Assembly: GCA_937894085.1 (NCBI GenBank)
Contig: CALCSG010000217.1
Coordinates: 2,199 to 66,198, forward strand
Reading direction: 5' to 3'
Length of the DNA: 64,000 nucleotides
Origin: an uncultured Gammaproteobacteria bacterium
GTDB lineage: Bacteria > Pseudomonadota > Gammaproteobacteria > GCA-001735895
Shown in pieces: positions 4,557 through 41,803 of the stretch. Position 1 is the first letter of the stretch; each line of letters opens with the position of its first letter. Made by a program: the position numbers and the translations under genes. Below the pieces are notes generated by a model, which worked only from the letters and a program-made list of their open reading frames with translations, searched no databases and was not told the DNA's origin.

Positions 4557-5156
4557 TTATTCTTTCTCAAAACCGAAAATCATTGCTTTGAGGTATCCAA
4601 GAAATTCATCACTGGTGGTCAAAGCCAGATACAGATGAACGATAAGAAATGCTAACAACATAAAAGCCATTGCGGTATGAATCAGCGCAATCACTAACAG
4701 GCTAACATCCCCAAGACCAATCATTGGCCAGTAAGGATAAAAAAAGTAGAGCAGACCACTTAGTACCGCAAATGGAAGCATAAAGATATGCAATGACAGG
4801 TATGCCATGCGCTGCATGGGATTTAGCTTTGAGCGTCTGGTTTTATGGTGAGGATGTTCACTACCACCAATAAATATATCCACCCCGTAATACTTCACCA
4901 TCGCTAACAATTTATTCATATTGGCAGGAATATATTGCTTCCACTCGCCGGTAACCATGTGCCAGAAAATACCCAGAAACCAGATGGCTATCAAAGACCA
5001 GGCAGCTACGATGTGAATATCAACCGCTTTTTCAAAGCCAAAAAAATCAAAAGTATCATGAATCTCAAAACCAGTTACCAGTAAGGTAATTACCAGTAAC
5101 CCCTGAGACCAGTGCCAGATCCGCTCGAAGCGGGTATACATCATGACTTCTTTCAT
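4557..5156 (-). CDS. Dihaem cytochrome b membrane subunit (Ni/Fe-hydrogenase-type cytochrome b / PhsC/CybB family)
   Basis: 199 aa with four TM helices. N-terminal RFERIWHWSQ motif and conserved His positions typical of PF01292-type cytochrome b. Start overlaps the upstream octaheme gene stop (ATGA). Confidence 0.8.
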   Translation of the reverse strand: MKEVMMYTRFERIWHWSQGLLVITLLVTGFEIHDTFDFFGFEKAVDIHIVAAWSLIAIWFLGIFWHMVTGEWKQYIPANMNKLLAMVKYYGVDIFIGGSEHPHHKTRRSKLNPMQRMAYLSLHIFMLPFAVLSGLLYFFYPYWPMIGLGDVSLLVIALIHTAMAFMLLAFLIVHLYLALTTSDEFLGYLKAMIFGFEKE

Positions 5157-6781: not shown

Positions 6782-6866
6782 GATACCCCCTCCCTAAAGT
6801 TTATTGCTTATAGTATCTCTGACCAAAGGCTGTAGACATTCATCTACAGCCTTTACCAGAACCCTC

Positions 6867-24543: not shown

Positions 24544-24996
24544 ATGTATAAAGATATCTTGTTACCAATTGATCTTAACCATAAAAGCTCCTGGCGAACA
24601 TCATTGCCGGTAGCGTTGGGTTTTTGTCAATGTTTTAAAGCCCGCCTGCACGTGATGACGGTTATTCCAAATTACGGTATGTCTATGGTCGGTGAGTATT
24701 TCCCCGAAGGGTTTGAAAAGAAGCATGTTGAAAGTGCAAATAAGTTGTTGCATGCCTTTACTCTTGAACATATACCGAAAGAGGTTGAGGTACAGCACAT
24801 CGTGGCTCAAGGAACAACTTATAAGGAGGTTCTGACTACCGCAGAAAAAATAGATGTGGACCTGATCATTATGGGTTCTCACCGACCCGAGTTGAAGGAT
24901 TATCTGCTGGGGCCTAATTCGGAGAGGGTTGTCAGGCATTCTCCTCGCTCGGTACTGGTGGTTCGCGATAATCAGCCCAACGATGAACTTTTATAA
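24544..24996 (+). CDS. Universal stress protein (UspA family)
   Basis: 150 aa. C-terminal DLIIMGSHRPELKDYLLGPNSERVVRHSPRSVLVV matches the UspA ATP-binding motif region. Confidence 0.8.
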   Translation: MYKDILLPIDLNHKSSWRTSLPVALGFCQCFKARLHVMTVIPNYGMSMVGEYFPEGFEKKHVESANKLLHAFTLEHIPKEVEVQHIVAQGTTYKEVLTTAEKIDVDLIIMGSHRPELKDYLLGPNSERVVRHSPRSVLVVRDNQPNDELL

Positions 24997-25413: not shown

Positions 25414-26406
25414 TCAGGCCAGTACTTTTAACTTTGATGGATAGCGAATGATTCTTCGGCCTTCTTCAAAATTGTCGAAGCTGTGTTGCCAGGTAGTTCC
25501 CGGCCAGCGAAGCTCCATCTGGCCTTTTGCCGGCCGGTAAACCGAAGTGTAAACGGTGCCGAAACCCCGATCGTACTCTGTCGAATATAATGGTGGGCTA
25601 AGAAAAGATTTTATAAAACCTTTCTCAGTTTCTTCCGTATCCGCCAGTCGACAGGACAGAAATTGCTCCCGTTCCAGTGATGACGTTGCGTTGGCGTGTC
25701 TGACCCACTCGATACGCCCCTGATGGTTGGTGGCGACCGGTATTTTTCGAATCACCGGAGCACGGTCAGGAGATAAAAAAGCTGTCTGGAACTGACCATG
25801 CTTATCCAGCAGGGTGACATTATACGACATGTGCGTCGGTATATGCGTCAACACTTCAACCGCCTGCTCGGTGCTATCGCAAAACTCCAGTACATATCTC
25901 AATATCAGAGGTACGCCAAAGCCATAGCCGACAACCTTGCGCCCGCCAAATGAAAGCGAAACGGATAGCCCATCGTCATTCATTCCATCCAGTACGCCCC
26001 ATAGACAGTCACCCATTGCTATGACCCGTTTATCGTTCCAGCGAGTCATCAAAAGACTGCCTTCGCACAGACGCGGGCTGTAATCATAGTTACGCACCAG
26101 CACCGACTCATGCCGGTCTGGCCACACCGCCTGAGAACAACCAGCGATATAGGGAGGAGGACGGTACAGTGAGAGTAAACGCGCCTGCTGGTCCCCACCA
26201 CCTGCCAGGTTCAACAGGCGTTCATAGGTTGGTACCAGTTCAGGGACATATTGACGCAGCATGCGGCGCGACTCCAGATAACTGGGTCGCGCCGCATCAC
26301 CTTCGGACAAAAACCATTTGTGATAAGCGGGCCAGTGCTTTTCAAAAAAAGCCGACCATTTCTCTCCTGGCTCATCTTCTGCGATGGCGTTAAAGTGTAG
26401 TTGCAT
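25414..26406 (-). CDS. C45-family / Ntn-hydrolase-type acyltransferase-hydrolase (acyl-CoA:6-APA acyltransferase-like)
   Basis: 330 aa. An internal GCS motif (YIAGCSQAVW) matches the autoproteolytic Gly-Cys nucleophile site of C45/Ntn hydrolases. Last gene of a four-gene operon. Confidence 0.5.
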   Translation of the reverse strand: MQLHFNAIAEDEPGEKWSAFFEKHWPAYHKWFLSEGDAARPSYLESRRMLRQYVPELVPTYERLLNLAGGGDQQARLLSLYRPPPYIAGCSQAVWPDRHESVLVRNYDYSPRLCEGSLLMTRWNDKRVIAMGDCLWGVLDGMNDDGLSVSLSFGGRKVVGYGFGVPLILRYVLEFCDSTEQAVEVLTHIPTHMSYNVTLLDKHGQFQTAFLSPDRAPVIRKIPVATNHQGRIEWVRHANATSSLEREQFLSCRLADTEETEKGFIKSFLSPPLYSTEYDRGFGTVYTSVYRPAKGQMELRWPGTTWQHSFDNFEEGRRIIRYPSKLKVLA

Positions 26407-26420
26407 TTTAAAATCTATAC

Positions 26421-27875
26421 TTAAAGAATCTTAAATGCTCCATCGATACTCATCGGTATGTCGGCCTGGTCGACTTTGTCGAGGGACTGCGATGCATACA
26501 TACCGTGCAGATCGCGTATCCAGCGCTGGGCGCGTTCGTTAAGCGTAAAGTCGTCGTTCATCAATCTTTCGCGCGTAATCAGGATACCCAGATCCGCACC
26601 CTTATAGATATAATCTCCAGCACCAATAATACGCAGGTAAAAGCCTTCATTTTCAGAGGTAATACCACGACGGTGATAATCAAAGCGTTCATACATTATG
26701 CGTCCATCGTCCTGCAATTCCCAGATACCTGATTCTGGTGCACTGCTGACCCATTCAACCCGGTCCTCATTGAACTTGAGCACCAGCTGACTCCAGCTAT
26801 CGATATTCTCCGCATCCGCCCAGCGTTCATTCAGTTCACTGACATCGAGATCAAATTCAACATCCGAGAATTCGAGCAGGTGAAATAGAAATAGAGGTGC
26901 ATCGGCATGCGCGAAAGCCGCGCTGTTGGTAAGACTGCTTACGCCGGTGACACGTGGATTTAGTTCTCCCAGGTAGATCTCGCCATTGTCCTGATCAATT
27001 AGGAAGTCCAGCTCGAAGTAACCGCGATAACCTTCTTCACGCAGTACTTCACCAAATTTGAAAGTATATTCCCTGGCCTTGTCGCGCACTTCCTGGGAAA
27101 ATGCATCGGCAAAGATTTCATTACCGCACCAGCCGCCCTTGTAAGGCGTCAGTTCCTTAAAGCCAACCAGTTCAGTCATCAATGGCCCGACGATAGTACC
27201 CTGTTTGGTAGTACAGGCTTCAATAGCGGAGCCACGCACATTGACCCGTTTCATGATCTTGATCTCGGGTTCCTTCTCGATATATTTTGCGTATTTTTTA
27301 TATTCGTCTTCGTTGGAAATGAACCAGGTAGTCTTGCCGGAATCGCCAAACGCCGATTGTAAAACCAGATCATTGCCCAGCTCTGCGGAAACTTCACAAA
27401 GCTCCTTGTAGCTACCTACTTTGGACAGAATATTCGGCACGCTTGGCACCCCTGCGCGGTTTCCCAGACGCACGGTTTCGATCTTGTTGTCCACCCGCTC
27501 GCGTAGTTCGGCGGAAGGAAACCACACATCAAGGCCCAGTTCTGCACACAGCGCCTCTGTCTCTTCATTGAACATCAGAAAGACAGCTTTTCCGCCCGGC
27601 CCTTTGGACTCGATAAAATCGATGACTTCCTTATGTTGTAGCAAATAGTTATTGATATCTTCTATGCTTTCAAACTCCCGGTGAGGCATTTCACTCGGCA
27701 CAAAGACATTCGGATGGCGACCGTCAAAACAGTCGATGTAGTTGATGTAATGAAAATTACGCACCCATTCACTGACACCCAACAGATTGAAGTTGGTCGC
27801 ACTGAAGAAAAATATCGGCGTTTCATTACGATGAAAAAAACGACGTATGTCTGAAATATTTTTTAGTTTTCTCAT
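26421..27875 (-). CDS. ATP-grasp family carboxylate-amine ligase
   Basis: 484 aa. Has the ATP-grasp core (ELNPR block, YFELDFLID, Gly-rich loop) but is not closely similar to any named ligase I can identify. Confidence 0.65.
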   Translation of the reverse strand: MRKLKNISDIRRFFHRNETPIFFFSATNFNLLGVSEWVRNFHYINYIDCFDGRHPNVFVPSEMPHREFESIEDINNYLLQHKEVIDFIESKGPGGKAVFLMFNEETEALCAELGLDVWFPSAELRERVDNKIETVRLGNRAGVPSVPNILSKVGSYKELCEVSAELGNDLVLQSAFGDSGKTTWFISNEDEYKKYAKYIEKEPEIKIMKRVNVRGSAIEACTTKQGTIVGPLMTELVGFKELTPYKGGWCGNEIFADAFSQEVRDKAREYTFKFGEVLREEGYRGYFELDFLIDQDNGEIYLGELNPRVTGVSSLTNSAAFAHADAPLFLFHLLEFSDVEFDLDVSELNERWADAENIDSWSQLVLKFNEDRVEWVSSAPESGIWELQDDGRIMYERFDYHRRGITSENEGFYLRIIGAGDYIYKGADLGILITRERLMNDDFTLNERAQRWIRDLHGMYASQSLDKVDQADIPMSIDGAFKIL

Positions 27876-27909
27876 GTTAATCCTCTTGGTTTAATTTTTT
27901 TAATGTTGA

Positions 27910-30795
27910 TTAATCCTGCTTAACTGATTCATCGGTATGGATTACTGCTGTGATATCTGCCGCTATTTCAGAGACCGAAATTCTCGCTGCCTTTTCAGTT
28001 CCCGTTACCAGGGCTTCTTCACTGAACACACGTAAACCCAGGTCCGGTCGGTAACCATGTATTTCCTTTACGTCCAGTGCGCGCATGAAATTTAGTATCT
28101 CCTGGCTGACCACCTGGCCCGGCACCAGGATCGGAAACCCCGGTGGATAGGGAATTACAAATCCGGCGCTTACCACCTCACGACCTTTCTGCATTTCCAT
28201 ATCAATGCTGTCATCATCTATACGCATGTAGTCGCACAACAAATCGTCATAGGCCAGAAAATAGGCCATGCGGATATCACCTTCATGAGTGCCAGTAGCT
28301 TTTCCCGGACTGAACATGGCATGAAAATGACTGAAATCAGGCAGTGGCGGTAAATCTATGGTCAGTGAATCAATACGATTCTGTATAATTTTACGTTCAC
28401 GCGGGCTGCTGTCCTTCCATTCATGGTCCAGTTCATTGGCGATCTTGACCAGTACACCGATCAGGTATGCGACTGAACTGCGCGTGGTGCCAATATTGGT
28501 CATGAACAATACTGAGTTGCGTGATGTTTTGTTGATTTGTATACCGTATTTGTCCATCAGGTATTTGTTTTTGAAGGTGTCTCCATCAATACCTGTTTTA
28601 CCGACATACAGGGTAATACGGCTGGGATCAATCACGAAATCATCTACCGTCCAGGCTTCTTCCATGTTCAGATTACGCCAACCGGTCTTCACATCATAAT
28701 AGGAACTGATGCCGGAAGGTCGATAATCATCGGGAATCATCTGACCTGCGGAGAGTACGCTGAAGTATTTATTCAATAAGGGGTGGGTAGTCACCCTTTC
28801 GCGTAGCGACATGGCAAGATCGAGCTGCTTCTGTACCAGCTCATAGCCTTCCAGTTCTACCTGGCGACGCCCCACATCAAGAGAGGCCAGAATCTGATAG
28901 TTAGGAGATGTAGAGGTATGCGTCATGAACGCCTCAGAAAAGGATTCTTCCACCTTGTGGCGAAACTCCTGATCATATACATGGATCATAGAGCCCTGGC
29001 GTAACGAGGTCAGCGTTTTATGGGTGGATTGAGTAGCGTAGACGCGCACCTTAACCAGGTCAGGATCAGGCATCAGTGTTGTTTTTAGCCACAGTTCATC
29101 GTCGTCCTTGTCTTTCAGTTTTTTCAGTGTTTTCTGGAAACCTGCATAGGTTTCCCGATACTTGTCACTAAGAAAACGAGCTTCCAGCGTACGTGCGTTA
29201 TACATCGCGGTGCGTTTTCGATAGGTTGGATGAAACCCGGCGAAGGCGAACCACGCTTCATCCCACAGAAAGATCAGGTCAGGCTTGATGGCCAGACATT
29301 CCATCATGATTTTTTCGACGTTGTACACCACACCATCGAAGGTGCAGTTAGTCAGTAGTAACATCTTGACCCGATCCAGCATGCCAGCGCGTCGATACTC
29401 TAACAGGCGGTGTTTTATTTCATGCAGGGGTACTGCGCCGTACATGGAATATTCACTCAGTGGATAGGAATCAAGATACGACACCTGTGCGCCGGATAGC
29501 ACCATGCCATAGTGATGGGACTTATGACAGTCGCGGTCGACCAGCACGATGTCGCCAGGCTTGATCAGCGCCTGCACCACGATTTTGTTCGAAGTCGACG
29601 TCCCATTCGTAGCAAAATAGCTGCGTTTCGCGCCGAAAGCCCGAGCGGCAAGTTCCTGCGCCCGTTTGATCGGACCATGCGGTTGCAGCAGGGAATCCAG
29701 CCCGCCGGATGTAGCTGATGTTTCTGCCAGAAACACATTCATGCCATAAAATTTCAACATATCACCCACCCACTTGGACTTGGTGAGTGATTTACCGCGT
29801 GAGATGGGCATAGCGTGGAAAACACCTGTCGGCTTGCGGCTGTATTCCTTTAACGCGGAAAAGAACGGCGTTTCGTAACGCGAATTGATGCCGCGCAGGA
29901 TAGCCAGATGCAACTCCAGGTAATCTTCCTGCCGATAAAAAACGCGGCGGAATTTTTCTGTTATATTTCCGGCAATCTCTTCTACTGCTACATCGGTAAC
30001 CAGGTACAGATCCAGTTCCGGGCGTAATTCAGAAATCATCGCGCCCAGCATGGGGCCACGATCGGTATCGGGTAATTCCTCAGCCTCTGATTCATTGATG
30101 CCCGCAAGCAACCGTTGCAGTACTTCCAGGTGATTCTTGGAGCGGAAGGGAAAGCCGTAGCGTATGACACAGGCCTGGATATTATAATTGAACAGAATTG
30201 CAATAAGGGCGTCTTCAAAGGTCGGCACCGAAATCACTTCATAATGGAACTGGTCATCATCACGCCGCATCTCAATCAATCCTTTGCGCAAACGCAACTC
30301 TTCAGCATCCGTCATTTCTTCGACGAATAACACCTCAAAGTAGGGTTTTTGCTGGATAGATTCGTCTTCTGTATATTCCTCTTCCTTGTCGCAGGAACTG
30401 TCGCCGGAGCTGAGACGCTTGATGGAAGAAAATGTCCCGCGTTGATAGGTGTGCGTGGTTATCGCTCGAACCAGGCGTTCAACCATACGACTCAGGGTGG
30501 AATAATCCTCACGTTCCAGAAACTTCCAGAGAGTTCTGAAATCTTCTCGTGAGGGAAAAGCGGTGTAGTATTCGATCGTTTCTAGAATCGTCATCGCATC
30601 ATGCGCTGCTTTTTTAAAACGCGCCACATCGGTTTTTCTTGCGGATCGATCACTCAGTTGTTTGGTATAATGTTCCAGACGATGCCAGGTATCAAATCGT
30701 AATTGACTGGCGCTATGGTAAAAGTCCAGAGACTTTCTAAGAATTTCTTTCGGGCTTTCTAACATATTTGCCTCTTTTGTTGATTGATGTTCCAT
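27910..30795 (-). CDS. Orn/Lys/Arg decarboxylase family (fold-I PLP) enzyme, oversized with N- and C-terminal extensions
   Basis: 961 aa. Blocks FATNGTSTSNKIV, DRDCHKSHHYGM, TQSTHKTLTSLRQGSMIHV (PLP-Lys in S-T-H-K) and AFMTHTSTSPNYQILASLDV match LdcI/SpeF-type decarboxylases almost residue for residue. About 150 extra N-terminal residues. Confidence 0.85.
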   Translation of the reverse strand: MEHQSTKEANMLESPKEILRKSLDFYHSASQLRFDTWHRLEHYTKQLSDRSARKTDVARFKKAAHDAMTILETIEYYTAFPSREDFRTLWKFLEREDYSTLSRMVERLVRAITTHTYQRGTFSSIKRLSSGDSSCDKEEEYTEDESIQQKPYFEVLFVEEMTDAEELRLRKGLIEMRRDDDQFHYEVISVPTFEDALIAILFNYNIQACVIRYGFPFRSKNHLEVLQRLLAGINESEAEELPDTDRGPMLGAMISELRPELDLYLVTDVAVEEIAGNITEKFRRVFYRQEDYLELHLAILRGINSRYETPFFSALKEYSRKPTGVFHAMPISRGKSLTKSKWVGDMLKFYGMNVFLAETSATSGGLDSLLQPHGPIKRAQELAARAFGAKRSYFATNGTSTSNKIVVQALIKPGDIVLVDRDCHKSHHYGMVLSGAQVSYLDSYPLSEYSMYGAVPLHEIKHRLLEYRRAGMLDRVKMLLLTNCTFDGVVYNVEKIMMECLAIKPDLIFLWDEAWFAFAGFHPTYRKRTAMYNARTLEARFLSDKYRETYAGFQKTLKKLKDKDDDELWLKTTLMPDPDLVKVRVYATQSTHKTLTSLRQGSMIHVYDQEFRHKVEESFSEAFMTHTSTSPNYQILASLDVGRRQVELEGYELVQKQLDLAMSLRERVTTHPLLNKYFSVLSAGQMIPDDYRPSGISSYYDVKTGWRNLNMEEAWTVDDFVIDPSRITLYVGKTGIDGDTFKNKYLMDKYGIQINKTSRNSVLFMTNIGTTRSSVAYLIGVLVKIANELDHEWKDSSPRERKIIQNRIDSLTIDLPPLPDFSHFHAMFSPGKATGTHEGDIRMAYFLAYDDLLCDYMRIDDDSIDMEMQKGREVVSAGFVIPYPPGFPILVPGQVVSQEILNFMRALDVKEIHGYRPDLGLRVFSEEALVTGTEKAARISVSEIAADITAVIHTDESVKQD

Positions 30796-30816
30796 GGTTG
30801 CATTATCAAGGCTCGA

Positions 30817-33800
30817 TTACAATTGAGCCGGTACAATGGATTCTGTTTGCCGATAATCTGCAAGGGGTGCTGCACTGACTTCAACAAGATCTTTTCTTAC
30901 AAAACCGAAGAGTTCACGTAGAACAACCGATAGTGTGGTGAAATCCGCTGCTGGTACAGCATTCAACTCGGCGATCAGTTGCACACAGTGCTCAATTTGA
31001 AATCCATGCGCAGCTCTCCAGCTTTCCATTTGATTACTCGATTCATCCTGTAGCGGACTATTTAGCACATCGATACAGATAGACTTCTGCAGATATAACA
31101 GATCATCGCGCAGTGACACGCGAGCAATCGCCTGCCAGCGCGTATTACGTGGCAACTCGCCTATCTTTTCTCTCAGCCAGGGAAGTTGCAGTAAATCACC
31201 CAACCCAAAAAATGTTGTCACCACGCTATCCAGCTCGATATGAGTCTGGATGGAGATCTCCACTAATTCCATCGAAGCGGAAAGGGTATCAAAAATCATA
31301 CTGTGTGCAGCAAGCTGTTCGGGAACGCCGGATTCCAGCAAGTGTCTATATTTCTGGTTGACCTGCGCCTGATGATGAATGAAATCTGACTGCAACAGGG
31401 CGGCGACATACTGTATTCGAGCCTGATATCGCTCCACGTTGAGTTTGATGTGTATCGGGCGCGGCGCATTCTGAATCATCCAGCGCACCGAGCGTTCCAG
31501 CAACTTACGCGTCTCAAACATCATGTTCTTCTGTACATCCCTGTCGCTAATATCCAGACTCTCAATCTGCTTCCACACATTATTTAAGCCAAATATCTCC
31601 CGCACAATGATAAATGAGCGTGTGATATCGCCTTCCGTTGCGCCCGTCTCTTCCTGCATTCTATACATAAAGGTAATGCCTGCTCGATTGACTAAACCGT
31701 TAGCAAGTTCGGTGGCGATAATTTCGCGACGTAAACGATGTCCCATCATCGCGTCCGGGTAAGCACTGCGTAACGCAGTGGGAAAGTAATCGATTAGTGT
31801 CTGCTCCAGGTATGGATCATCAGGAAGGTCAGATGCAATCAGGCCTTTCGACAGACCGATTTTTACATACGCAATCAACACCGACAGTTCCGGTGCTGTC
31901 AGGCCTTCTGACGCACTCAGTCGTTCCTGCATAACCTCATCCGTGGGCAGATATTCCAACGCCCTGTTCAACCCGCCCTGATGTTCCAGTTTACGAATCA
32001 AACGACCATGAGCTTCAAGCATCCTGCGCGAATTAAAACTGGACAGGCTCAGGGCCTGGGTCTGATAAAAATTATTTTTCAGCACCAGAAGCGCGACCTC
32101 ATCCGTCATGCTGGCGAGTAATTCACTACGCTGTTGTAAGGTCATTTCTCCGCTAGACATGACGGTATTCAGCAGTATCTTGATATTGACTTCATGATCA
32201 GAACAATCGACGCCGGCGGAGTTATCGATGGCATCGGTGAAGATGCACCCTTTTTGTTGAGCGAACTCGATACGTCCAGACTGGGTCAGTCCCAGATTTC
32301 CACCCTCTGCCACTACCCTGCAACGTAATTGATTGCCGTTGATGCGTAACGCTTCATTGCTGCGGTCGCCCACATCTGCATGTTGCTCATGCGATGCCTT
32401 GACATAGGTGCCAATGCCGCCATTCCACAGCAGATCAACCCTGGCTTTTAACAGCAGCTGTATGAGTTCAACAGGGGTCAGCCGGGTCACGCTGATTTGC
32501 AGTCGATGAGCCATCTCTTCACTGAGCTGTATCGACTTCGAACTGCGCGCAAAGATACCGCCGCCCTGAGAAATAATCGACCTGTTATAATCTTCCCAGC
32601 CTGAGCGAGGCAGATTGAATAGCCGCTCGCGCTCAGCATAAGACTGTTCACAATCTGGGTTGGGATCGAGAAATATATGCTGATGATTGAAGGCGCCAAT
32701 CAGCTCAATGTTGCGCGATAGTAACAGCCCATTGCCGAACACATCACCACTCATATCGCCAATACCGACGACCGTGAAGGGATTATTATCTATATCCATC
32801 GACAGATCTTTGAAATGTCGCTTAACCGACTCCCAGGCGCCGCGTGCAGTAATGCCCATGCCCTTATGATCATAGCCTACAGAACCGCCTGATGCGAAAG
32901 CGTCGCCCAGCCAGAATTGATAGGAAGCAGCGACCTCGTTGGCGATATCAGAAAAAGTTGCAGTGCCTTTATCAGCTGCCACAACCAGGTAAGGGTCATC
33001 TCCATCATGACGAAAAACCCGCTCTGGCGGAACGGGTACACCATCAACCAGGTTGTCAGTAATATCCAGCAATCCGCTGATGAAGGTCCGGTAACAATTG
33101 ATGCCTTCAGCAAGAATCTGATCGCGTGTTCCCTGCACGGGCAACTGTTTTGTCAGGAAGCCGCCCTTGGATCCACCTGGAACAATTACCGAGTTTTTCA
33201 CCATCTGTGCCTTGACCAGCCCCAGCACCTCGGTGCGAAAATCCTCCTGCCGATCAGACCAGCGTAATCCGCCGCGCGCTATTTTGTCGCCGCGTAAATG
33301 CACACCTTCCACACGTGGGGAATAAACAAATATTTCATATTTAGGCCTGGGTTCAGGCATGTCTGGCACGCGAGCAGAATCGAATTTAATCGACAGGTAA
33401 TCATGTTGTCCACCCTCCCTGTTTAACTGGAAATAATTGGTGCGCAGGCTGGCCGAGATTGCGCCCATAAAACGCCGGATAATACGGTCTTCATCAAGAC
33501 TTTCTACCTGCTCCAGAAGTTGAATAATCTGCGCCTCCAGCTGTGCATTACGTTCTTCACGCGAGCCCGTGAAATCCGGGTCAAAGCGCGTCTCAAACTG
33601 CTGAATCAATATTGCAGCAATGTGCGCATTTCCTACCATCGCCTGGATCATATAGTCGTGACTGAAGGTGCCACGCACCTGGCGAAGGTAATGCGAATAG
33701 GCGCGTAAAATATCGACCCGACGCCAGTCAATAATGGCGCGTAGAATAAGCCTGTTGAATCCATCGTTAGAGGATTCACCCTGAAATATACGTTTAAAGG

Positions 33801-35721
33801 CATCCTCAAAAAAACTTTTAACCTGCTCCAGCTGCAACTCCTGTTCGGTATGCTGCAGGCCGAAGTCATGAATCCACACAGTCTCCCCACTTTTCAGCCT
33901 GATCCTGCTGGAATGTTCATCTATGACCTTCAGGCCCATATTCTCCAGCATGGGCAGGGCTTCTGACAACGCCACAGCTACTCCGAAACTGAACAACTTG
34001 AAGCGTAACAAATTGTCAGGAGAGTCTTCCTTACGCAACAGCTCCATCGAAATATCGCCTGGCTTTTGCAGAGCCGCGATATGTTTTATATCCTGCACCG
34101 CTTCCTCAGGCGAATAGGATTCACGGTAATCCGCCCGAAACCCTTCTCCGTAAAGTCGAAACAATTGAATACCCTGTTCTTCTCCATGAGTTCCAATCAG
34201 CGCATTGCGCATCAGGTCTCGCCACGGCTGTGAGACGGCGACAATGTCGGATTCTATGTTTTTTATATCGAATAACTTGATCGCGTCCGATGAGATATGT
34301 ATTAGAAAGTTTACTCTCGCCAGCAGCGCTTCATTGATCTGCACACTAAAGTTTACCGTTTCACCACCCAGCGCCTGTTCGAGAATTCGACCGATACTCT
34401 GCCGCACCTCGGTATTAAAATGGTCGCGCGGTATAAATACCAGGCAATTATAAAAACGGCGATAGGGATCCTTACGAATAAAAATCCTGGTTTCCTGCCT
34501 TTCCTGCAGTTGCATGATGCCAATAGAGGCCTCAAGCAATTCATCCTCGCTGATCTGAAACAACTCATTGCGAGGGTAATTCTCCAGAACACTCAGCAGG
34601 TTGCGTTCTGCATAGCTGTTTTGATGCAGACCGCTGCGTCTTAATACATTTTCCACCTTGCGGCGCAACAGCGGAATATGATGCGTGTCACTGGTATAGG
34701 CCGATGAGGTATATAAGCCCAGAAAGCGGTGCACTCCGGTCACTTCACCCTCGGTATTGAATGTTTTAATGCCAATGTAATCCATATAACCGGGTCGATG
34801 CACCCTGGATGCTGAACCGGACCGGGTTAGCACAAGCAGCTCGGGCACACGCGCCAGACGGCGAATATCAGCTGGCAGGGAAGCAAAACTGCGGCACAGC
34901 TGTTCACCGTCATCACTCTCTTCCTTGCGCAATATGCCAAGTGAAGTTCCCGGAATTATATTTAACTGGTCTTCACCATCTAAATTGACCAGGCTGTGTT
35001 GACGATAACCCAGGAACACGAAATTTCCTTCCAGCAGCCATTGCAGGTAGGCAAAATTTTCATTTAATTCATCATTTTCAAGCGGCAGCGCCTGGCTTTT
35101 TGCCTGCGAGAGAACTTCAGATAATCTGACACGCATAGCTGCAAAATCTGCTACCGCGGTTTTCACATCAAGCAGGGCCTGTTCGATCCGCTTATGGATT
35201 TGGGTAAGCGACTCCTCATCATTTTGTCGATCAATCTGGAAATGCATAAAGGATTCATCAACCAGATGTTTTTTAGCTGACCGCGGTGCACCGGCCGTTT
35301 TGAAATGTCCTTCCTCTCCACGCTGTACATGCATCACGGGATGGATCGATAGATGAATGGATGAACCGTCCTGATTGATCGCCATACGTACGGAATCGAC
35401 CAGAAAAGGCGTATCGTCGGTGATAATGTCAATCACTGTATGCGCCGATTCCCACCCATCCCGCTCCAAAACAGGGTTATAAACACGTATCAGCGCATCG
35501 CTACCGGGTAACCGTTGCTTCGCAATATTCCAGTGCGCCAACAGCAAAGCGTATACATCTTCTATGGTGGCTTCTTCCAGGTAGTCGGCTGAAATGCCCG
35601 CAAGATAAAGTCTGACAAAGGACTCCAGATCGTTTGCCTGACCCGGTAAACGATCATGCAAAAGCTTAGACATTTTAGTTATATAGCCATCCAGGGAAAC
35701 GGGCATCTGCATCATCCTCAT
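30817..35721 (-). CDS. gdhB: NAD-specific glutamate dehydrogenase, large (~180 kDa) GdhB type
   Basis: 1634 aa. Length and sequence are characteristic of the bacterial giant NAD-GDH family (Bac_GDH). Confidence 0.9.
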   Translation of the reverse strand: MRMMQMPVSLDGYITKMSKLLHDRLPGQANDLESFVRLYLAGISADYLEEATIEDVYALLLAHWNIAKQRLPGSDALIRVYNPVLERDGWESAHTVIDIITDDTPFLVDSVRMAINQDGSSIHLSIHPVMHVQRGEEGHFKTAGAPRSAKKHLVDESFMHFQIDRQNDEESLTQIHKRIEQALLDVKTAVADFAAMRVRLSEVLSQAKSQALPLENDELNENFAYLQWLLEGNFVFLGYRQHSLVNLDGEDQLNIIPGTSLGILRKEESDDGEQLCRSFASLPADIRRLARVPELLVLTRSGSASRVHRPGYMDYIGIKTFNTEGEVTGVHRFLGLYTSSAYTSDTHHIPLLRRKVENVLRRSGLHQNSYAERNLLSVLENYPRNELFQISEDELLEASIGIMQLQERQETRIFIRKDPYRRFYNCLVFIPRDHFNTEVRQSIGRILEQALGGETVNFSVQINEALLARVNFLIHISSDAIKLFDIKNIESDIVAVSQPWRDLMRNALIGTHGEEQGIQLFRLYGEGFRADYRESYSPEEAVQDIKHIAALQKPGDISMELLRKEDSPDNLLRFKLFSFGVAVALSEALPMLENMGLKVIDEHSSRIRLKSGETVWIHDFGLQHTEQELQLEQVKSFFEDAFKRIFQGESSNDGFNRLILRAIIDWRRVDILRAYSHYLRQVRGTFSHDYMIQAMVGNAHIAAILIQQFETRFDPDFTGSREERNAQLEAQIIQLLEQVESLDEDRIIRRFMGAISASLRTNYFQLNREGGQHDYLSIKFDSARVPDMPEPRPKYEIFVYSPRVEGVHLRGDKIARGGLRWSDRQEDFRTEVLGLVKAQMVKNSVIVPGGSKGGFLTKQLPVQGTRDQILAEGINCYRTFISGLLDITDNLVDGVPVPPERVFRHDGDDPYLVVAADKGTATFSDIANEVAASYQFWLGDAFASGGSVGYDHKGMGITARGAWESVKRHFKDLSMDIDNNPFTVVGIGDMSGDVFGNGLLLSRNIELIGAFNHQHIFLDPNPDCEQSYAERERLFNLPRSGWEDYNRSIISQGGGIFARSSKSIQLSEEMAHRLQISVTRLTPVELIQLLLKARVDLLWNGGIGTYVKASHEQHADVGDRSNEALRINGNQLRCRVVAEGGNLGLTQSGRIEFAQQKGCIFTDAIDNSAGVDCSDHEVNIKILLNTVMSSGEMTLQQRSELLASMTDEVALLVLKNNFYQTQALSLSSFNSRRMLEAHGRLIRKLEHQGGLNRALEYLPTDEVMQERLSASEGLTAPELSVLIAYVKIGLSKGLIASDLPDDPYLEQTLIDYFPTALRSAYPDAMMGHRLRREIIATELANGLVNRAGITFMYRMQEETGATEGDITRSFIIVREIFGLNNVWKQIESLDISDRDVQKNMMFETRKLLERSVRWMIQNAPRPIHIKLNVERYQARIQYVAALLQSDFIHHQAQVNQKYRHLLESGVPEQLAAHSMIFDTLSASMELVEISIQTHIELDSVVTTFFGLGDLLQLPWLREKIGELPRNTRWQAIARVSLRDDLLYLQKSICIDVLNSPLQDESSNQMESWRAAHGFQIEHCVQLIAELNAVPAADFTTLSVVLRELFGFVRKDLVEVSAAPLADYRQTESIVPAQL

Positions 35722-36128
35722 ATTTTCATTTTGTCCCTTTTCAGGGAGTGTGACTCAATTTTTTATAATGTAGAATCCACAACGGGACTGGAGTTCTGCG
35801 TACTGTAAGCAGGTTCATGTCCAGGCAATTAGACGACTGCCTGTTAAACACCTTTTAGTACTGAGTGTTCCCATGACTTAATCTAAATAGTTTTACCGGA
35901 ATTCTCTGTTCCAGTTTAAATTACATCTAATACTTGCGGTAACGCTTAGATATGTAAATACTATGTTTTGAATGCTTGCTTGACGAAAACCGCAAGTAAT
36001 GAGATTTTCAGTAAATACTGAATTAATAAATCTGCCTGCCTGGCCATGATCCTTGATGACCCGCTCAGGACGAAAATCATCAGACCCTGGATTTGATTTC
36101 CGGGAGAACTGAAAAAAGAGAATAAGCA

Positions 36129-37037
36129 ATGATACTCGGTCAACTCAACGATATAGATGTGAAGTTATTACGCGTGTTTCGCCAGATTGTGGAATGCGGC
36201 GGCATGACTGCTGCGGAGCTGGAATTAAATATTAGTCGCTCTGTCATCAGCAGGCAGTTAAAAGACCTGGAGATACGACTGGGAGGGCTTCGTCTGTGTC
36301 AACGAGGTCGCGCCGGATTTGCACTGACCGATGAAGGGCAGCATGTGTATGATTCGATCATCAAGTTACAGACCGCGATGGACTCGTTCCGCGCCGAGGT
36401 CAACGACCTGCATCAAAAAATGACCGGTAACCTGGTGATTGCTCTGGGTGATCTCACCATGACAAATCCGCATGCGCGTATCTCACAGGCAATACAGAAA
36501 TTCAATCAAATTGCACCTGATGTCTCGCTGGAATTACATGCCCAGTCACTGAATGCCATTGAGTCGAGTATCATCGATGGAGCTTATCACATAGGGATCG
36601 TACCTCTGCACCGAAATTCCAGTAGCCTGGATTATCACCCCTTATTTAGTGAAAAGATGCATATATACTGCGCCCGCTCTCATCCACTGTTTGATGCTGA
36701 CCACAGCAAGCTGGACTGGGATGATATAAAACATTACCCATTTGCCGGGCTGGGCTATCATTCGCCCAATATGGAATTAACGCACGAAAAGGGGCTAAAG
36801 CGCAGTGCAACAGCATATGATCAGGAGTCCATCGCCACCCTGATTAGCTCGGGAATTTATATCGGTTTTTTACCCGATCATTATGCGGATATTTTTGTCG
36901 CGGATAGTCACATGCAGCGCATTGAGAATGAAACTTTTGAATACGACGTACAGTATTCCGCCATTATCCGGCGCGCACCTGTTTCATCGCGTAGCGTACA
37001 TGTACTGATGCAATGTCTGGTGGAAGCTCACCAATAA
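36129..37037 (+). CDS. LysR-family transcriptional regulator, divergent from the gdhB operon
   Basis: 302 aa. N-terminal wHTH (LLRVFRQIVECGGMTAAELELNISRSVISRQLKDLE) plus a LysR substrate-binding domain. Confidence 0.85.
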   Translation: MILGQLNDIDVKLLRVFRQIVECGGMTAAELELNISRSVISRQLKDLEIRLGGLRLCQRGRAGFALTDEGQHVYDSIIKLQTAMDSFRAEVNDLHQKMTGNLVIALGDLTMTNPHARISQAIQKFNQIAPDVSLELHAQSLNAIESSIIDGAYHIGIVPLHRNSSSLDYHPLFSEKMHIYCARSHPLFDADHSKLDWDDIKHYPFAGLGYHSPNMELTHEKGLKRSATAYDQESIATLISSGIYIGFLPDHYADIFVADSHMQRIENETFEYDVQYSAIIRRAPVSSRSVHVLMQCLVEAHQ

Positions 37038-37580: not shown

Positions 37581-39452
37581 TTAATGCTGTAAGTTGACGA
37601 TTTCATCAGCATCATCTTCATCAAGCTGCACACTACGTAAGGCGGCTTTAAAATCACTATCACCTTTCGTAAACAGTACTTCTCCCATTTGCACGAGATT
37701 TCTTGCCACGTCATAGGCATAAGCAGAGTCGTTCATCAGTGAGGTTGCCATTCTGGCAGTGATCCGGCCTTCCCGGATTAGACGTTCGATGGTGTCATTA
37801 ACCATGCGGTCATGTTCTTCCATTTCAAGTTTAATCACATCCATCAACAGCATTTCTCCCATATCATCTTCATCTTTTCTGATATTCTCCAGTCTGCGCA
37901 TAACCGAACCAAGTCCAGCTCGTATCTTGTTATATTCCTCGCGGATATACTGGTTATCGGAGGCTATGTACTGAACAAGATTACCATGCATATGTTTGGT
38001 ATCTTTGATGGCTTCTACTATGTCCCGGCCTGCCGCCCTTAGCATGAATAACTCGTCGGCCTGTTGCTCCGACATGTTCAGGGAAGACTTACTGATAAAA
38101 CTGACAATCTCACTATATAAATCCTTGATCTTGTTATCATATTCATCATCCATATCGATACTCATCGGCTTACCAGGTTTATCGGCTATATCTTCCAGAC
38201 TATCTTCTGACAAAATATCATGGCGATGCAGGCTCAGCCCGTGGGCAATAATTGCGAAAGCATTTTCATACAGGTGTACGGTTTCTTTACGCACGGATTC
38301 CAGCGCGGTATCCGGCAACTCAAAGGCAGACTCGTTCAGATACATTGGCTCCGCTTCGGCAATTGTTTTATCAGGCATCAAGCGGGTAACCAGACGCACC
38401 AGTGGATTAACCAGCGGTATCATGATGATGACGCCCGCAACATTGAATATGGTGTGGAATACGGCAAGTTTAAGCGTGTAGTCAGTTGGTGCGAGACCAA
38501 TAATGTCTGAGATGACATCAACCAGCCAGGTAATTTGATTGATCATCAGTATAAATACAATCCCGGCCGACACCTTAAACAAAACATCTGACAGGGCCAG
38601 TCGCTTGCCATCTGTATTGGATGTCAGAGAACCCAGTATGGCAGTGATAGTGGTACCTACGTTGGCACCTATAACCAGTGCCAGCGCGTTATCATAGGTC
38701 AGTTGCTGCACCGACAGTGCGGTTATGACCAGTACCAGTGTGGCGTGGCTTGACTGCATGATAATGGTGGCCAGTATTCCAATCAGGGTAAATACCAGCA
38801 ACCCGGCAAAACCTTCCATTGCGTAGTCAGTCAGGTTGATTTGAGTCTGGAATGTCTCAAAACCTTCTTTCATGTGGTGAATACCCAGAAAAAGGAACCC
38901 CAGTCCAGCCAGGATGTAACCAAACCCTTTTAACGATTTAGATTTCTGGAACACCAGCACCACGCCAAACACCAGCATCGGCATTGCGTAGGCAGAGATT
39001 TTTACCTTTAAACCAAAACCCGCAATGAGCCAGGCGCCGGTCGTGGTACCAACATTGGCACCAAAGATAATACCCATACCCTGTACCAGCCCAATAAGAC
39101 CTGCACTTAGAAAAGAGATAGTAATAACGGATACAAGAGAGCTGGACTGCATGATGGTCGCAGCAGTAAAACCAAAGGACAGGCTTTTCCACATTTTGTT
39201 AGTGCTTTTACGCAATACTTTTTCCAGCGTGCCGCCGGTAAATGCCCGGAATCCCTCTTCCAGTGAAAACATTCCAAATAGAAAGATAGCGACACCCGCT
39301 GCTATTTCCTTGAAATTAGGACTAATCCAGAACCCATAGGCGAGGATGACAAGCATTGTCGGCAAGATTATTTTTTTTAGCATATTCCAGTATTTCTCAT
39401 AATTAAAGATGTAATTAAACGCAGATAATAAACGAAGGTTGGTAGACTTCAA
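37581..39452 (-). CDS. Na+/phosphate cotransporter family protein (NptA/YjbB-like) with C-terminal PhoU-like domain
   Basis: 623 aa. Duplicated GANVGTT motifs in the TM region and a C-terminal soluble PhoU-like helical domain. Confidence 0.85.
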   Translation of the reverse strand: MKSTNLRLLSAFNYIFNYEKYWNMLKKIILPTMLVILAYGFWISPNFKEIAAGVAIFLFGMFSLEEGFRAFTGGTLEKVLRKSTNKMWKSLSFGFTAATIMQSSSLVSVITISFLSAGLIGLVQGMGIIFGANVGTTTGAWLIAGFGLKVKISAYAMPMLVFGVVLVFQKSKSLKGFGYILAGLGFLFLGIHHMKEGFETFQTQINLTDYAMEGFAGLLVFTLIGILATIIMQSSHATLVLVITALSVQQLTYDNALALVIGANVGTTITAILGSLTSNTDGKRLALSDVLFKVSAGIVFILMINQITWLVDVISDIIGLAPTDYTLKLAVFHTIFNVAGVIIMIPLVNPLVRLVTRLMPDKTIAEAEPMYLNESAFELPDTALESVRKETVHLYENAFAIIAHGLSLHRHDILSEDSLEDIADKPGKPMSIDMDDEYDNKIKDLYSEIVSFISKSSLNMSEQQADELFMLRAAGRDIVEAIKDTKHMHGNLVQYIASDNQYIREEYNKIRAGLGSVMRRLENIRKDEDDMGEMLLMDVIKLEMEEHDRMVNDTIERLIREGRITARMATSLMNDSAYAYDVARNLVQMGEVLFTKGDSDFKAALRSVQLDEDDADEIVNLQH

Positions 39453-40369: not shown

Positions 40370-41803
40370 CTATTCTTCATTATTATGCAAACGTGCCAGC
40401 CGACGATTCAAAGCTGGACGGGAAATCCCGAGCAACGTGGCTGCCACCCCCTGATTACCATTGGCTCGCTGCATCGCTTCACGTACCAGGCAGGTATCTG
40501 CCTGGTTGAGCGTAGGGAATTGTCCCGGTATCTGTAGCAGGTTGTTGTTTTCAAGCTTGCTCGTTTCGGTTTTCCGGGCGGGCATAATCTGCTGCTGTTT
40601 TTCAACCGCATTTCTGAATCGATCGAGAGAAAGTATCGAGCCGGATCGATGGGTAGCGACGGCATCAAAAACCAACGCCCTGAGCTCCCGAATATTACCA
40701 GCAAAGTGATATATTCCCAGCAAGTCATACAGTTCCGGAGGGGCGACCAGGTCATCTTTTCCCATAGATTTTGCTGCATCTACCACAAACCGTTTAACCA
40801 GTAAGGGTAAATCTTCCCGTCTATCACGCAATGGCAAAAGTTCAATCTGATGTACTGACAGGCGAAAATATAGATCAGAACGAAAATCATCGTCCAGCAT
40901 ACGTTGATGGAGATTTCTATTAGTTGCACAGATAATGCGTACATCACTGTTAATGCTAATATCCGAACCCAGTGGGTTATACCTTTTTTCCTGTAGCAGG
41001 CGTAACAATTTAATCTGTGATGCGTGAGATAACTCTCCAATCTCATCCAGAAAAAGGGTACCGCCCACTGCTGCTGAAATCAGTCCTTTGCGGGTATCTG
41101 TAGCCCCGGTAAAGGCACCTTTCTTATGCCCGAAAAGGGTATCTGAAAACAGCGCGTCATCCAGCCCGGCGACATTAACGGGTATTAACTCACCAGTGAG
41201 ACCACTTAACTGATGGATTGTTCTGGCCAACAATTCCTTACCTACTCCGGTTTCGCCGGTGATTAACACGGGCTCATTTGAATTAGCGATAGCCTCTGCA
41301 TACTGGAAAACCGAGTGCATTTTTTTACTAACCGTATCGAAACAGCTGAATACCTGAGCATGCTCAAGCTTATTGGTTAACAGATAATCCTTCAGCACGT
41401 TAACCTGTCGTCGCAGAGAACGCATTTCTACAGCTCGCTTAACACTGGATATCAGTCGACTTTCCTCGACAGGTTTGACCAGATAGTCAAACGCACCCTG
41501 TTTCATACTTGATACAGCTGTTTCCACATCCTGCGCTGCCGTCATCACAATGACCGGAACCTCAGGATAACTTTTTATCAGAGCAGGCAATAAGTCGATT
41601 CCAGATATTTCAGGCATATACAGATCAAGCAAAATAACCGCGACTTCCTGCTGCTGAAGAAGCGGAAGCAAATCACGGCTATCCTGCAAGGTAATAACCG
41701 GTTTTAACCCGGCACCCGATAACAGCAATTTTGAACTATGCAGTACCGTGGATTCATCATCCACCAGTACCAGAGGAAGCTCGGTGGAAGCTTGATAACT
41801 CAT
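40370..41803 (-). CDS. Sigma-54-dependent response regulator (NtrC family: REC - AAA+ - Fis-type HTH)
   Basis: 477 aa. Receiver domain with a D-containing acidic pocket, GETGVGKELLARTIH Walker A, a GAFTGA-like sigma-54 interaction region, and a C-terminal HTH. Confidence 0.9.
   Translation of the reverse strand: MSYQASTELPLVLVDDESTVLHSSKLLLSGAGLKPVITLQDSRDLLPLLQQQEVAVILLDLYMPEISGIDLLPALIKSYPEVPVIVMTAAQDVETAVSSMKQGAFDYLVKPVEESRLISSVKRAVEMRSLRRQVNVLKDYLLTNKLEHAQVFSCFDTVSKKMHSVFQYAEAIANSNEPVLITGETGVGKELLARTIHQLSGLTGELIPVNVAGLDDALFSDTLFGHKKGAFTGATDTRKGLISAAVGGTLFLDEIGELSHASQIKLLRLLQEKRYNPLGSDISINSDVRIICATNRNLHQRMLDDDFRSDLYFRLSVHQIELLPLRDRREDLPLLVKRFVVDAAKSMGKDDLVAPPELYDLLGIYHFAGNIRELRALVFDAVATHRSGSILSLDRFRNAVEKQQQIMPARKTETSKLENNNLLQIPGQFPTLNQADTCLVREAMQRANGNQGVAATLLGISRPALNRRLARLHNNEE

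Follow-up and report, generated by a model that had tools for sequence, protein, structure and literature searches.

What an oversized amino-acid decarboxylase, an ATP-grasp enzyme and an amidohydrolase may do together, when their genes follow one another within a few tens of nucleotides, is the question raised by a 64,000-nt stretch of contig CALCSG010000217.1 (positions 2,199 to 66,198; assembly GCA_937894085.1) from an uncultured, aquatic Gammaproteobacteria bacterium, hereafter the window, whose coordinates are used throughout. Four co-directional genes on the reverse strand encode a C45-family hydrolase (25414-26406), an ATP-grasp enzyme (26421-27875), a decarboxylase (27910-30795) and a large NAD-specific glutamate dehydrogenase (GDH; 30817-35721), and a LysR-family regulator is encoded divergently on the forward strand (36129-37037). 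A first-pass annotation of the sequence had described this arrangement, with gaps of 14 bp (C45/ATP-grasp), 34 bp (ATP-grasp/decarboxylase) and 21 bp (decarboxylase/GDH); the coordinates and annotated gaps were confirmed, and the domain identities assigned to GDH, ATP-grasp, C45, LysR and the OKR-type decarboxylase were borne out by Pfam and NCBIfam. It had also suggested that the four genes serve a polyamine-conjugate pathway under LysR control. The data presented here point elsewhere: the region 15387-37037 is probably a ca. 22-kb glutamate-utilisation island built around the 4-aminobutyrate (GABA) shunt, which includes a GABA-linked trio composed of the ATP-grasp enzyme, the C45 hydrolase and an amidase encoded at 19139-20059. 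The decarboxylase, shunt and importer assignments, as well as the linkage of the trio genes to GABA genes, are supported by homology and genomic context.

Domain calls are based on Pfam and NCBIfam profile scores compared with the family cut-offs, and structures are AlphaFold2 (AF2) models searched with Foldseek. For comparison, species-representative genomes were scanned with the ATP-grasp protein; this gave at least 555 relatives, of which the best 80 loci (designated by L numbers) were analysed by tblastn and clustering of open reading frames (ORFs), and the 54 with full flanks form the basis of most neighbour counts. The closest relatives in the genome collection are Chromatiales-like metagenome-assembled genomes (MAGs), in which the ATP-grasp protein is 82-85% identical.

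The nature of the decarboxylase is central to the argument. It carries an OKR_DC_1 domain (E 1.6e-76) and had been taken for a basic-amino-acid enzyme of the LdcI/SpeF type, a view that did not hold since its NCBIfam scores are 4-8 fold under every cut-off for lysine, arginine and ornithine (KOR) decarboxylases (score/cut-off: LdcC 205/968, LdcI 180/1056, AdiA 174/1167, SpeF 156/1310) and since it is a full-length relative of Rv2531c of M. tuberculosis. The match to the latter (PDB 9N0N/9N0O; 832.9 bits, E 2.8e-249, 45% identity) consists of a single alignment of residues 23-950 with residues 16-920 of Rv2531c, which spans all four domains in the same order, i.e. extra N-terminal, response-regulator-like, catalytic and C-terminal. 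Rv2531c is an L-glutamate decarboxylase that is inactive on Lys, Orn and Arg; its deletion resulted in the loss of 84% of cellular GABA and of all 13C-glutamate-to-GABA labelling, and the pure enzyme, a cooperative tetramer, converts L-glutamate to GABA in a Mg2+-dependent manner with hysteresis and a Hill coefficient of 4 (PMC13506015). The lysine binding pyridoxal phosphate (PLP) is K593 in the STHK motif, and together with H424 and K425, which correspond to the H405/K406 pair of Rv2531c needed for the internal aldimine, it is invariant in 60/60 sequences. Residues proposed to recognise glutamate in Rv2531c (R576, T606, R718 and N731), among which R576 is the proposed gamma-carboxylate ligand in the authors' model (PMC13506015), are all kept but R718: R576 is R599 in the window, T606 is T629 and N731 is N755, while K742 takes the place of R718, conservatively and throughout the cassette enzymes. 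R599, T629, N755 and K742 are invariant across 59 cassette homologues. The window enzyme is thus probably a glutamate decarboxylase of the "cloaked" Rv2531c type and, because of this type, the four-carbon amine would be GABA formed directly from glutamate.

The long N-terminal part fits the same picture. The protein has 951/961 aa, depending on the start codon, versus ca. 710-760 aa for three-domain KOR enzymes, and its major domain begins at residue 309 versus ca. 130 in LdcI. The PLP lysine in STHK is present as had been described, whereas the extra N-terminal sequence amounts to about 180 aa instead of the ca. 150 announced. These residues are not unexplained either, as they match the N-terminal four-helix bundle that cryo-electron microscopy of Rv2531c revealed as an extra domain next to the response-regulator-like one (PMC12329521). 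Among the 59 cassette homologues this region is conserved, with 29-39% identity per block. As to the start, the first ATG (30795) has no ribosome-binding site while the second (30765), 10 codons downstream, is preceded at 5 nt by an AAAGAGG Shine-Dalgarno sequence, and gene callers on identical metagenomic contigs report a 951-aa product. The true start is therefore probably 30765, so that the gap to GDH would be 51 bp and not 21, the other two gaps remaining as annotated. When compared to E. coli LdcI/CadA, AdiA and SpeF, the enzyme shares the PLP fold-type I OKR_DC_1 catalytic and C-terminal domains and the S-x-H-K motif, but identity is only ca. 25-30%, and it has one more domain at its N-terminus, an Arg in the side-chain pocket and a characterised long-form relative that is inactive on basic amino acids. 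With Rv2531c (PDB 9N0N/9N0O/9N0P) it shares the four domains, the full-length identity, the PLP lysine, the H405/K406, R576, T606 and N731 equivalents and a link to the GABA shunt; it differs by the Lys at position R718 and in that its gene opens a conserved cassette.

Genes on the other side of the C45 gene complete a putative route from external glutamate to succinate. GabT, a 4-aminobutyrate--2-oxoglutarate transaminase (16910-18199, forward strand; TIGR00700, 585.6 bits for a cut-off of 506.65), follows GabD, an NADP-dependent succinate-semialdehyde dehydrogenase (SSADH; 15387-16856, forward strand; NF008415, 831.8 bits for a cut-off of 828; TIGR01780, 741.6), and GabD homologues recur beside the cassette in other loci. 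A TAXI-family TRAP solute-binding protein (20555-21529, forward strand; TIGR02122, 345.7 bits) is a probable glutamate receptor: it matches VcGluP of V. cholerae (PDB 8S4J; 422 bits, E 1.1e-125), which is glutamate-specific (PMC11574862), and most ligand residues are kept (Y45, S75, Q93, H123, E125 and G156). The adjacent permease (21917-24529, forward strand; TIGR02123, 683 bits; PF06808 and PF11874) is fused and carries the DUF3394 "claw" domain, as does VcGluQM (PMC11574862). Differences from the VcGluPQM system reside in four changes of the binding site (Y200F, M201V, D157Q and S40G) and in the genomic context, which is argR-mdh in Vibrio. A universal stress protein gene (24544-24996, forward strand; PF00582, 8.6e-23) comes next, and 8 of the 80 loci (6/54 with full flanks) have such a gene together with TRAP genes alongside the cassette. 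Finally, the GDH (1634 aa) displays eight Bac_GDH Pfam domains (873 bits for the catalytic one) that represent the full ACT, helical-motif, catalytic and C-terminal set of the large bacterial type (GdhB / L-GDH180, ca. 1600 aa).

Based on these assignments, the VcGluPQM-like TAXI-TRAP system would import glutamate, the Rv2531c-type decarboxylase would convert it to GABA and CO2, and GabT and GabD would take GABA to succinate while glutamate is regenerated from 2-oxoglutarate. The large GDH would in turn convert glutamate to 2-oxoglutarate and ammonium, which supplies the co-substrate of GabT and releases nitrogen, and local regulation may be exerted by the LysR and a LuxR-type protein. The first-pass suggestion that GabD and GabT fit a four-carbon amine end-product therefore stands, with GABA and not putrescine as that amine. 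As in canonical GABA shunt/Gad systems (GadA/B-GadC, YbaS, GabT/GabD), the flow would run from glutamate through GABA and succinate semialdehyde to succinate, and an amidase is encoded beside the glutamate decarboxylase as is the YbaS glutaminase in E. coli acid resistance. Unlike in these systems, the decarboxylase belongs to the OKR family and not to group II glutamate decarboxylases, GABA is seemingly consumed and not exported, and three extra conserved enzymes are present.

Comparison of the loci indicates which of these genes belong together. Next to the ATP-grasp gene, the 54 full-flank loci contain C45 (54), the decarboxylase (50), a carbon-nitrogen (CN) hydrolase (48), GabT (25, counted as a homologue no further than 10 kb away), TAXI/TRAP (9), the large GDH (2) and an orthologue of the LysR (1). 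The C45 gene adjoins the ATP-grasp gene in all 54, and the decarboxylase-ATP-grasp-C45 series shows one order on one strand in almost every one of the 80 loci, far beyond chance. Carriers comprise Gamma-, Alpha- and Betaproteobacteria, Flavobacteriaceae, Planctomycetota and one "Eiseniibacteriota" MAG. The CN-hydrolase gene commonly precedes that of the decarboxylase immediately and in the same orientation; in 6 of the 54 loci it is replaced by an amidase-signature amidase located just after C45. From the neighbour counts and this replacement, the conserved unit is the decarboxylase, the ATP-grasp enzyme, C45 and an amidase. It is thus only in part the four-gene operon first described: the genes are tightly linked, do not form a textbook pathway, and three of them are syntenic in relatives, but GDH (2/54) is not, a unit under LysR (1/54) is not supported, and the CN-hydrolase (48/54) had been left out.

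GDH and LysR are lineage-specific additions. The LysR orthologue (68% identity) lies divergently from the decarboxylase in L001 only, and the large GDH precedes the decarboxylase in the window lineage and, in the same arrangement, in L004. In the beta-proteobacterial L079 and L070 a large GDH follows GabT, at full length in the former and as a partial match in the latter, and a small GDH lies divergently on Rhizobium plasmids, so that glutamate dehydrogenases have been recruited to the cassette more than once. In these beta-proteobacterial loci the order is TAXI-TRAP, universal stress protein, CN-hydrolase, decarboxylase, ATP-grasp, C45 and GabT followed by the large GDH, and on a Chondrinema litorale plasmid (Bacteroidota) a single strand carries SSADH, gabT, CN-hydrolase, decarboxylase, a permease, ATP-grasp and C45.

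Loci from which the decarboxylase is missing proved most informative as to what links the trio to its surroundings. In Thiofilum, Thiothrix, Shinella, Roseateles and L080, the ATP-grasp-C45 pair occurs among arginine-catabolic genes with the CN-hydrolase nearby. These loci encode an agmatinase-family enzyme, an aldehyde dehydrogenase, a D-amino-acid dehydrogenase/racemase and a 5-guanidino-2-oxopentanoate decarboxylase (770 bits for a cut-off of 500), a gene set whose predicted products form the route from arginine via 2-ketoarginine and 4-guanidinobutyrate to GABA. In L067 and L028, a PotA/PotD-type ATP-binding cassette (ABC) importer, of the polyamine/GABA kind, is followed by GabT, CN-hydrolase, ATP-grasp and C45. 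The ATP-grasp protein of the Thiothrix-type loci is 84% identical to the decarboxylase-linked one of the same clade, which indicates the same orthologue. Overall, every full-flank locus (54/54) has the decarboxylase, the guanidinobutyrate gene set or GabT beside ATP-grasp-C45; as an alternative source of GABA or GabT is present when the decarboxylase is missing, GABA looks like the hub, and GABA or a close neighbour looks like the simplest common factor of the trio contexts. The co-occurrence of the same trio with three GABA sources, and the exchange of its amidase for an unrelated one, narrow the search for the substrate to GABA and its immediate neighbours.

Among the trio, the ATP-grasp enzyme belongs to an uncharacterised family labelled "biotin carboxylase" (PRK06524/NF005096), with a CPSase_L_D2 domain (PF02786) and an NF005096 score of 763.7 bits (cut-off 684). 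Because this model describes the same uncharacterised family under the biotin carboxylase (BC) name, passing it carries no evidence for BC activity. Against TIGR00514 (accC) the protein reaches 22.8 bits for a cut-off of 626.5, and 24-35 bits against other BC models (cut-offs 597-1114). No biotin carboxyl carrier protein (BCCP) or carboxyltransferase was found by Pfam among the ORFs of at least 150 aa scanned between positions 698 and 58114 of the window, nor in six annotated plasmid loci of relatives. With scores far below the cut-offs and no such partners among the genes scanned, a genuine BC function was rejected, and the label is a mis-annotation. The AF2 model (pLDDT 79.5) retrieves BC domains as best folds (TM ca. 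0.6, ca. 14% identity, E ca. 1e-16), then PurD and PurK, and sequence and profile searches of the PDB gave only weak, partial matches to BC and carbamoyl phosphate synthetase.

With AccC, PurK and PurD the enzyme would thus share the three-domain ATP-grasp fold, the Mg/ATP E-x-N motif and the following Arg. The Mg/ATP ligands D290, E304 and N306 are invariant, and R308, the equivalent of BC R292, is kept. A low-confidence local hhalign alignment with E. coli AccC (Prob 58%, 14-21% identity) places Q173 at K159 and W249 at K238, and its extension by motif, also of low confidence, aligns E276, E288, N290 and R292 with D290, E304, N306 and R308 and places V312 (Ala in the consensus) at E296; the apparent loss of the K159, K238 and E296 equivalents is tentative for that reason. 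Besides these residues, differences from AccC lie in the ca. 14% identity and in a C45 hydrolase partner in place of BCCP and carboxyltransferase. The family is large, counting at least 7153 homologues and 363 clusters at 50% identity (E <= 1e-30), and it is conserved to an unusual degree, its members in different phyla being 65-89% identical. No Rosetta-stone fusion was seen in 150 representatives, which are full-length (ca. 440-650 aa) or shorter fragments, and a 1780-aa decarboxylase-ATP-grasp ORF in L079 turned out to be an out-of-frame artefact of high GC. A role in cyanophycin or peptidoglycan metabolism was also discarded, as no similarity to CphA or Ddl rose above noise and the 80 loci contain no cell-wall or cyanophycinase genes; the ATP-grasp and C45 proteins are thus left without a clear unrelated assignment. 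No tie to this family could be made out for the "biotin carboxylase" Bphy_7724 of P. phymatum. The context of a distant paralogue from actinobacteria (P0338/P0393/P0397) was uninformative, its gene standing alone with dapB and an M16 peptidase as neighbours.

The second member, encoded at 25414-26406, is a Cys-Ntn amidohydrolase/acyltransferase of the C45 family (PF03417, 4.5e-32 and 112 bits for a cut-off of 23.2; NF040521, 178 bits for a cut-off of 85). The GCS nucleophile motif that had been pointed out is indeed present as G89-C90-S91 and is conserved: C90 is invariant in 38 sequences and G89 and S91 nearly so (>=90%). A propeptide of 89 residues, self-cleavage between Gly89 and Cys90 and Cys90 as nucleophile are predicted from the sequence. 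For the AF2 model (pLDDT 91), the best PDB fold is the isopenicillin-N acyltransferase (IAT) precursor (2x1c; E 1.8e-13, TM 0.68-0.72), found by fold search only, sequence searches of the PDB having yielded no meaningful match. The protein resembles the C45 members Penicillium IAT (PDB 2X1C-E) and Drosophila Tan in its Pfam AAT family, its predicted Gly-Cys self-cleavage site and its Ntn alpha-beta-beta-alpha fold, and differs from IAT by an identity of ca. 13-14%, a propeptide of 89 versus 102 residues and a bacterial catabolic context with an ATP-grasp partner. In Rhizobium leguminosarum strain OyaliB, the C45 gene is interrupted by insertion sequence (IS) elements.

The amidase of the window, the fourth conserved member of the module (19139-20059, reverse strand; PF00795, 2.6e-34), is a CN-hydrolase that falls far under the cut-off of every named NCBIfam family, so that no named subfamily fits. 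Motifs resembling the Glu-Lys-Cys triad were recognised by eye (FSELA, RYRKMF and SICYDMW). In sponge-symbiont-like Gammaproteobacteria (L007-L010, L015, L016 and L020), its place is taken by the amidase-signature amidase, whose gene follows those of C45 and of a conserved, opposite-strand protein of 140-190 aa with no Pfam match that recurs in 16 loci. The swap is read as non-orthologous displacement, which argues that an amidase activity belongs to the system.

Taken together, the ATP-grasp enzyme, C45 and an interchangeable amidase may represent an unrecognised, phylum-spanning GABA-processing pathway, either one that makes and turns over a GABA-containing amide metabolite or one that leads, at the expense of ATP, to or from GABA beside the shunt, and that may alter how Rv2531c-type decarboxylases operate outside mycobacteria; we place this at slightly below an even chance. 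More tentatively, and by analogy with known enzyme pairs, the trio might make and break a GABA amide conjugate. The ATP-grasp enzyme would then join GABA to a partner via an ATP-dependent amide bond, GABA being the amine or, via 4-aminobutyryl phosphate, the acyl donor; C45, once self-cleaved at Gly89-Cys90, would hydrolyse or transfer the omega-aminoacyl or gamma-linked amide; and the amidase would remove a terminal amide or carbamoyl nitrogen. The product would be a small GABA conjugate made and broken beside the shunt as a buffer, an osmolyte or a pathway intermediate. Carnosine synthase, an ATP-grasp enzyme, makes beta-alanyl-histidine and GABA-histidine; among C45 relatives, IAT splits delta-aminoadipyl amides and Drosophila Tan beta-alanyl ones, in both cases amides of non-alpha-linked amino acids; and MfnD adds a gamma-glutamyl group to the amine that the PLP decarboxylase MfnA forms. 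Glutathionylspermidine synthetase/amidase, PuuA/PuuD, carnosine synthase/carnosinase and Ebony/Tan likewise associate an ATP-dependent ligase with a Cys or Ntn amidohydrolase, the substrate being a small compound that contains an amine, yet the trio has no homology to GspS, PuuA or PuuD and no polyamine-forming step accompanies it. The initial idea that an amine, an ATP-grasp ligase and an amidohydrolase mean an amide conjugate is still viable as a hypothesis if the amine is taken to be GABA.

Several points weigh against the glutamate/GABA interpretation or its extension to the trio. The decarboxylase is only 45% identical to Rv2531c and one proposed substrate-site residue has changed (R718 to K), and the K0.5 of Rv2531c for glutamate is 509 mM (kcat/K0.5 136 M-1 s-1; PMC13506015), so that another physiological substrate is possible in other organisms. 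GabT and GabD alone suffice for GABA catabolism, which leaves the trio without obvious necessity, and a make-and-break cycle of a GABA conjugate would waste ATP. The closest folds of the ATP-grasp enzyme are the bicarbonate-activating biotin carboxylases, PurK and PurD, and not dipeptide ligases. In several soil and marine Alpha- and Betaproteobacteria the trio lies beside Dpp/Opp-type peptide ABC importers, which would fit the breakdown of an imported compound over synthesis. On plasmid pBB1 of Cupriavidus necator N-1 (L091), CN-hydrolase-ATP-grasp-C45 occur with no decarboxylase or GabT nearby, in the company of a Dpp-type ABC importer upstream, of a MocR/GabR-type regulator (GntR plus aminotransferase fold) downstream and of an aldehyde dehydrogenase; it is the one examined context without an obvious GABA source.

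An alternative that we consider unlikely is the ATP-driven opening of an amide or lactam to feed the shunt. Here the BC-like ATP-grasp enzyme would N-carboxylate or phosphorylate an unreactive amide or lactam such as 5-oxoproline, 2-pyrrolidone or an imported peptide-like amide, and C45 and the amidase would then hydrolyse it, following the logic of urea amidolyase or 5-oxoprolinase, with release of glutamate or GABA. Such a scheme agrees with the fold similarity to N-carboxylases that activate bicarbonate (BC, PurK), with the retention of Arg308 at the R292 position, with the exchange of the CN-hydrolase for an amidase-signature enzyme, whose family includes allophanate hydrolase and AtzE, with the Dpp/Opp-type or other importers adjacent in several loci and with the binding of pyroglutamate by VcGluP (PMC11574862). 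On the other side, the equivalents of K238 and E296 of BC are not conserved in the low-confidence alignment, and the presence of the trio alongside three GABA-producing routes, including the arginine-derived one, is not explained by this scheme itself. We know of no precedent for an ATP-grasp lactamase.

Quite unlikely is a scheme for cassette-bearing bacteria whereby the ATP-grasp enzyme would supply the decarboxylase with a gamma-glutamyl conjugate as substrate in place of free glutamate, C45 then releasing GABA from the decarboxylated conjugate and the amidase recycling the handle. It would make sense of the very poor K0.5 of Rv2531c for free glutamate and of the tight, almost universal linkage of the decarboxylase, ATP-grasp and C45 genes, and protection logic of the Puu type and MfnA/MfnD, where the PLP decarboxylase comes first and MfnD gamma-glutamylates its amine product, offer precedents. 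However, ATP-grasp-C45 persists as the same orthologue (84% identity) in loci devoid of the decarboxylase, R599 is placed for a free gamma-carboxylate according to the model of the Rv2531c authors, and in M. tuberculosis the decarboxylase alone makes GABA from labelled glutamate (PMC13506015).

A function of the trio in metabolite repair appears very unlikely. By analogy with Nit1/Nit2, the three enzymes would remove or rebuild damaged by-products of a high-flux transamination and decarboxylation of glutamate and GABA, for instance gamma-glutamyl compounds that have been decarboxylated or deaminated; deaminated-glutathione amidase and Nit2/omega-amidase are indeed among the named families closest to the CN-hydrolase, and the trio accompanies PLP enzymes working at very high substrate concentrations. 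This similarity is weak (50-66 bits for cut-offs of 355-500), though, and repair systems are rarely so tightly operon-linked and rarely come with an ATP-dependent ligase and dedicated importers.

The least likely alternative, and one we hardly retain, is the polyamine-conjugate or gamma-glutamyl-polyamine pathway first proposed, in which an Orn/Lys-type decarboxylase would form putrescine or cadaverine for conjugation by the ATP-grasp enzyme (gamma-glutamyl- or glutathionyl-like) and hydrolysis by C45 under LysR control: the OKR_DC_1 domain, the Ldc/Adi/Spe models as best named NCBIfam matches, the ability of GabT/GabD to finish putrescine catabolism and the PotA/PotD-type importer beside GabT-CN-hydrolase-ATP-grasp-C45 in L067 and L028 are outweighed by scores 4-8 fold below the KOR cut-offs, full-length kinship with an enzyme inactive on Lys, Orn and Arg, the invariant R599 as proposed side-chain-carboxylate binder, a linked importer of the glutamate type, a LysR that is not conserved with the cassette and the lack of any polyamine-forming step, amine oxidase or ligase of the glutamine synthetase (GS) type, PuuA/PauA included. 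Indeed, none of the Puu/Pau or glutathionylspermidine families (GS-type or GspS ligase, amine oxidase, class-I glutamine amidotransferase or CHAP amidase) occurs among the genes annotated from 13478 to 39452.

A glutamate/GABA island with its linked trio extends the "cloaked" glutamate decarboxylases, described in 2026 in M. tuberculosis, to many marine and soil Proteobacteria, Bacteroidota and Planctomycetota, where the genes of these decarboxylases are now annotated as ornithine/lysine decarboxylases; the importer, GabT/GabD and GDH assembled in one island provide independent backing from genomic context for the glutamate/GABA role. GDH, GabT, GabD and TAXI-TRAP are ordinary, and the decarboxylase family was characterised only in 2026. 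What is new is the near-obligate link of the decarboxylase to an ATP-grasp/C45/amidase module outside mycobacteria and the fidelity of this module to GABA-generating contexts. The Rv2531c papers make no mention of ATP-grasp or C45 neighbours (PMC13506015, PMC12329521), and nothing on the trio was found by a full-text literature search. GABA metabolism is relevant to osmoadaptation, acid stress, symbiosis and host interaction, and Rhizobium plasmids carry the cassette, in one case beside fixAB; a missing branch of this metabolism, if true, would be of general interest.

In Rhizobium leguminosarum (L086 and L087), conjugative plasmids carry the cassette, whose neighbours are fixAB-type genes in L086 and a radical S-adenosylmethionine (SAM) cluster for a ribosomally synthesised and post-translationally modified peptide (RiPP) in L087, with a small Glu/Leu/Phe/Val dehydrogenase encoded divergently in both. 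Other recurrent neighbours, which give no functional clue, are a 149-aa protein with no Pfam match, a VOC/glyoxalase, a 217-aa Cys-rich protein, an SDR, a serine dehydratase and a fumarase.

Two regulators are encoded in the island. The LysR-family protein has both PF00126 (HTH_1) and PF03466 (LysR_substrate) domains, and the 407 bp between its gene and that of GDH (35722-36128) are presumed, from gene arrangement only, to hold a promoter/operator region. A scan for the sigma-70 consensus gave no strong match inside this interval and, more generally, matches to promoter and terminator consensus were not above the shuffled expectation, with no clear sites in the intergenic regions. The second regulator, of the LuxR/GerE type (277 aa; 18277-19110, reverse strand), has a PF00196 GerE domain at residues 205-259 (1.2e-14) and no Pfam match in its N-terminal 200 residues. 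Its gene adjoins that of the CN-hydrolase in L001, L003, L004, L006, L018 and L019 and is kept even in Thiothrix-type loci that have no decarboxylase, which suggests that it may sense the substrate of the module.

Outside the island, five electron-transfer genes on the reverse strand (2373-8156) may constitute a periplasmic or extracellular electron-transfer module. They encode NapC/NirT (2373-3020), a seven-haem Multi-haem_cyto protein (3010-4464), cytochrome b561 (4557-5156), a Cytochrome_cB/MtrC-like protein (5153-6781) and a c554-like protein (6867-8156). On the same strand are found a 963-aa GGDEF-EAL protein with PAS, HAMP and Tll0287-like sensor domains (8651-11542) and, next to it, an unusual ZnuA-SCO1/SenC fusion (11686-13122). 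Finally, two phosphate transporters of the Na/Pi cotransporter and PHO4 families occur no more than 16 kb apart (37581-39452, reverse strand, and 52158-53789, forward strand), and the interval between them encodes a sigma-54 response regulator (40370-41803) as well as a CHASE-PAS sensor (42218-44383).

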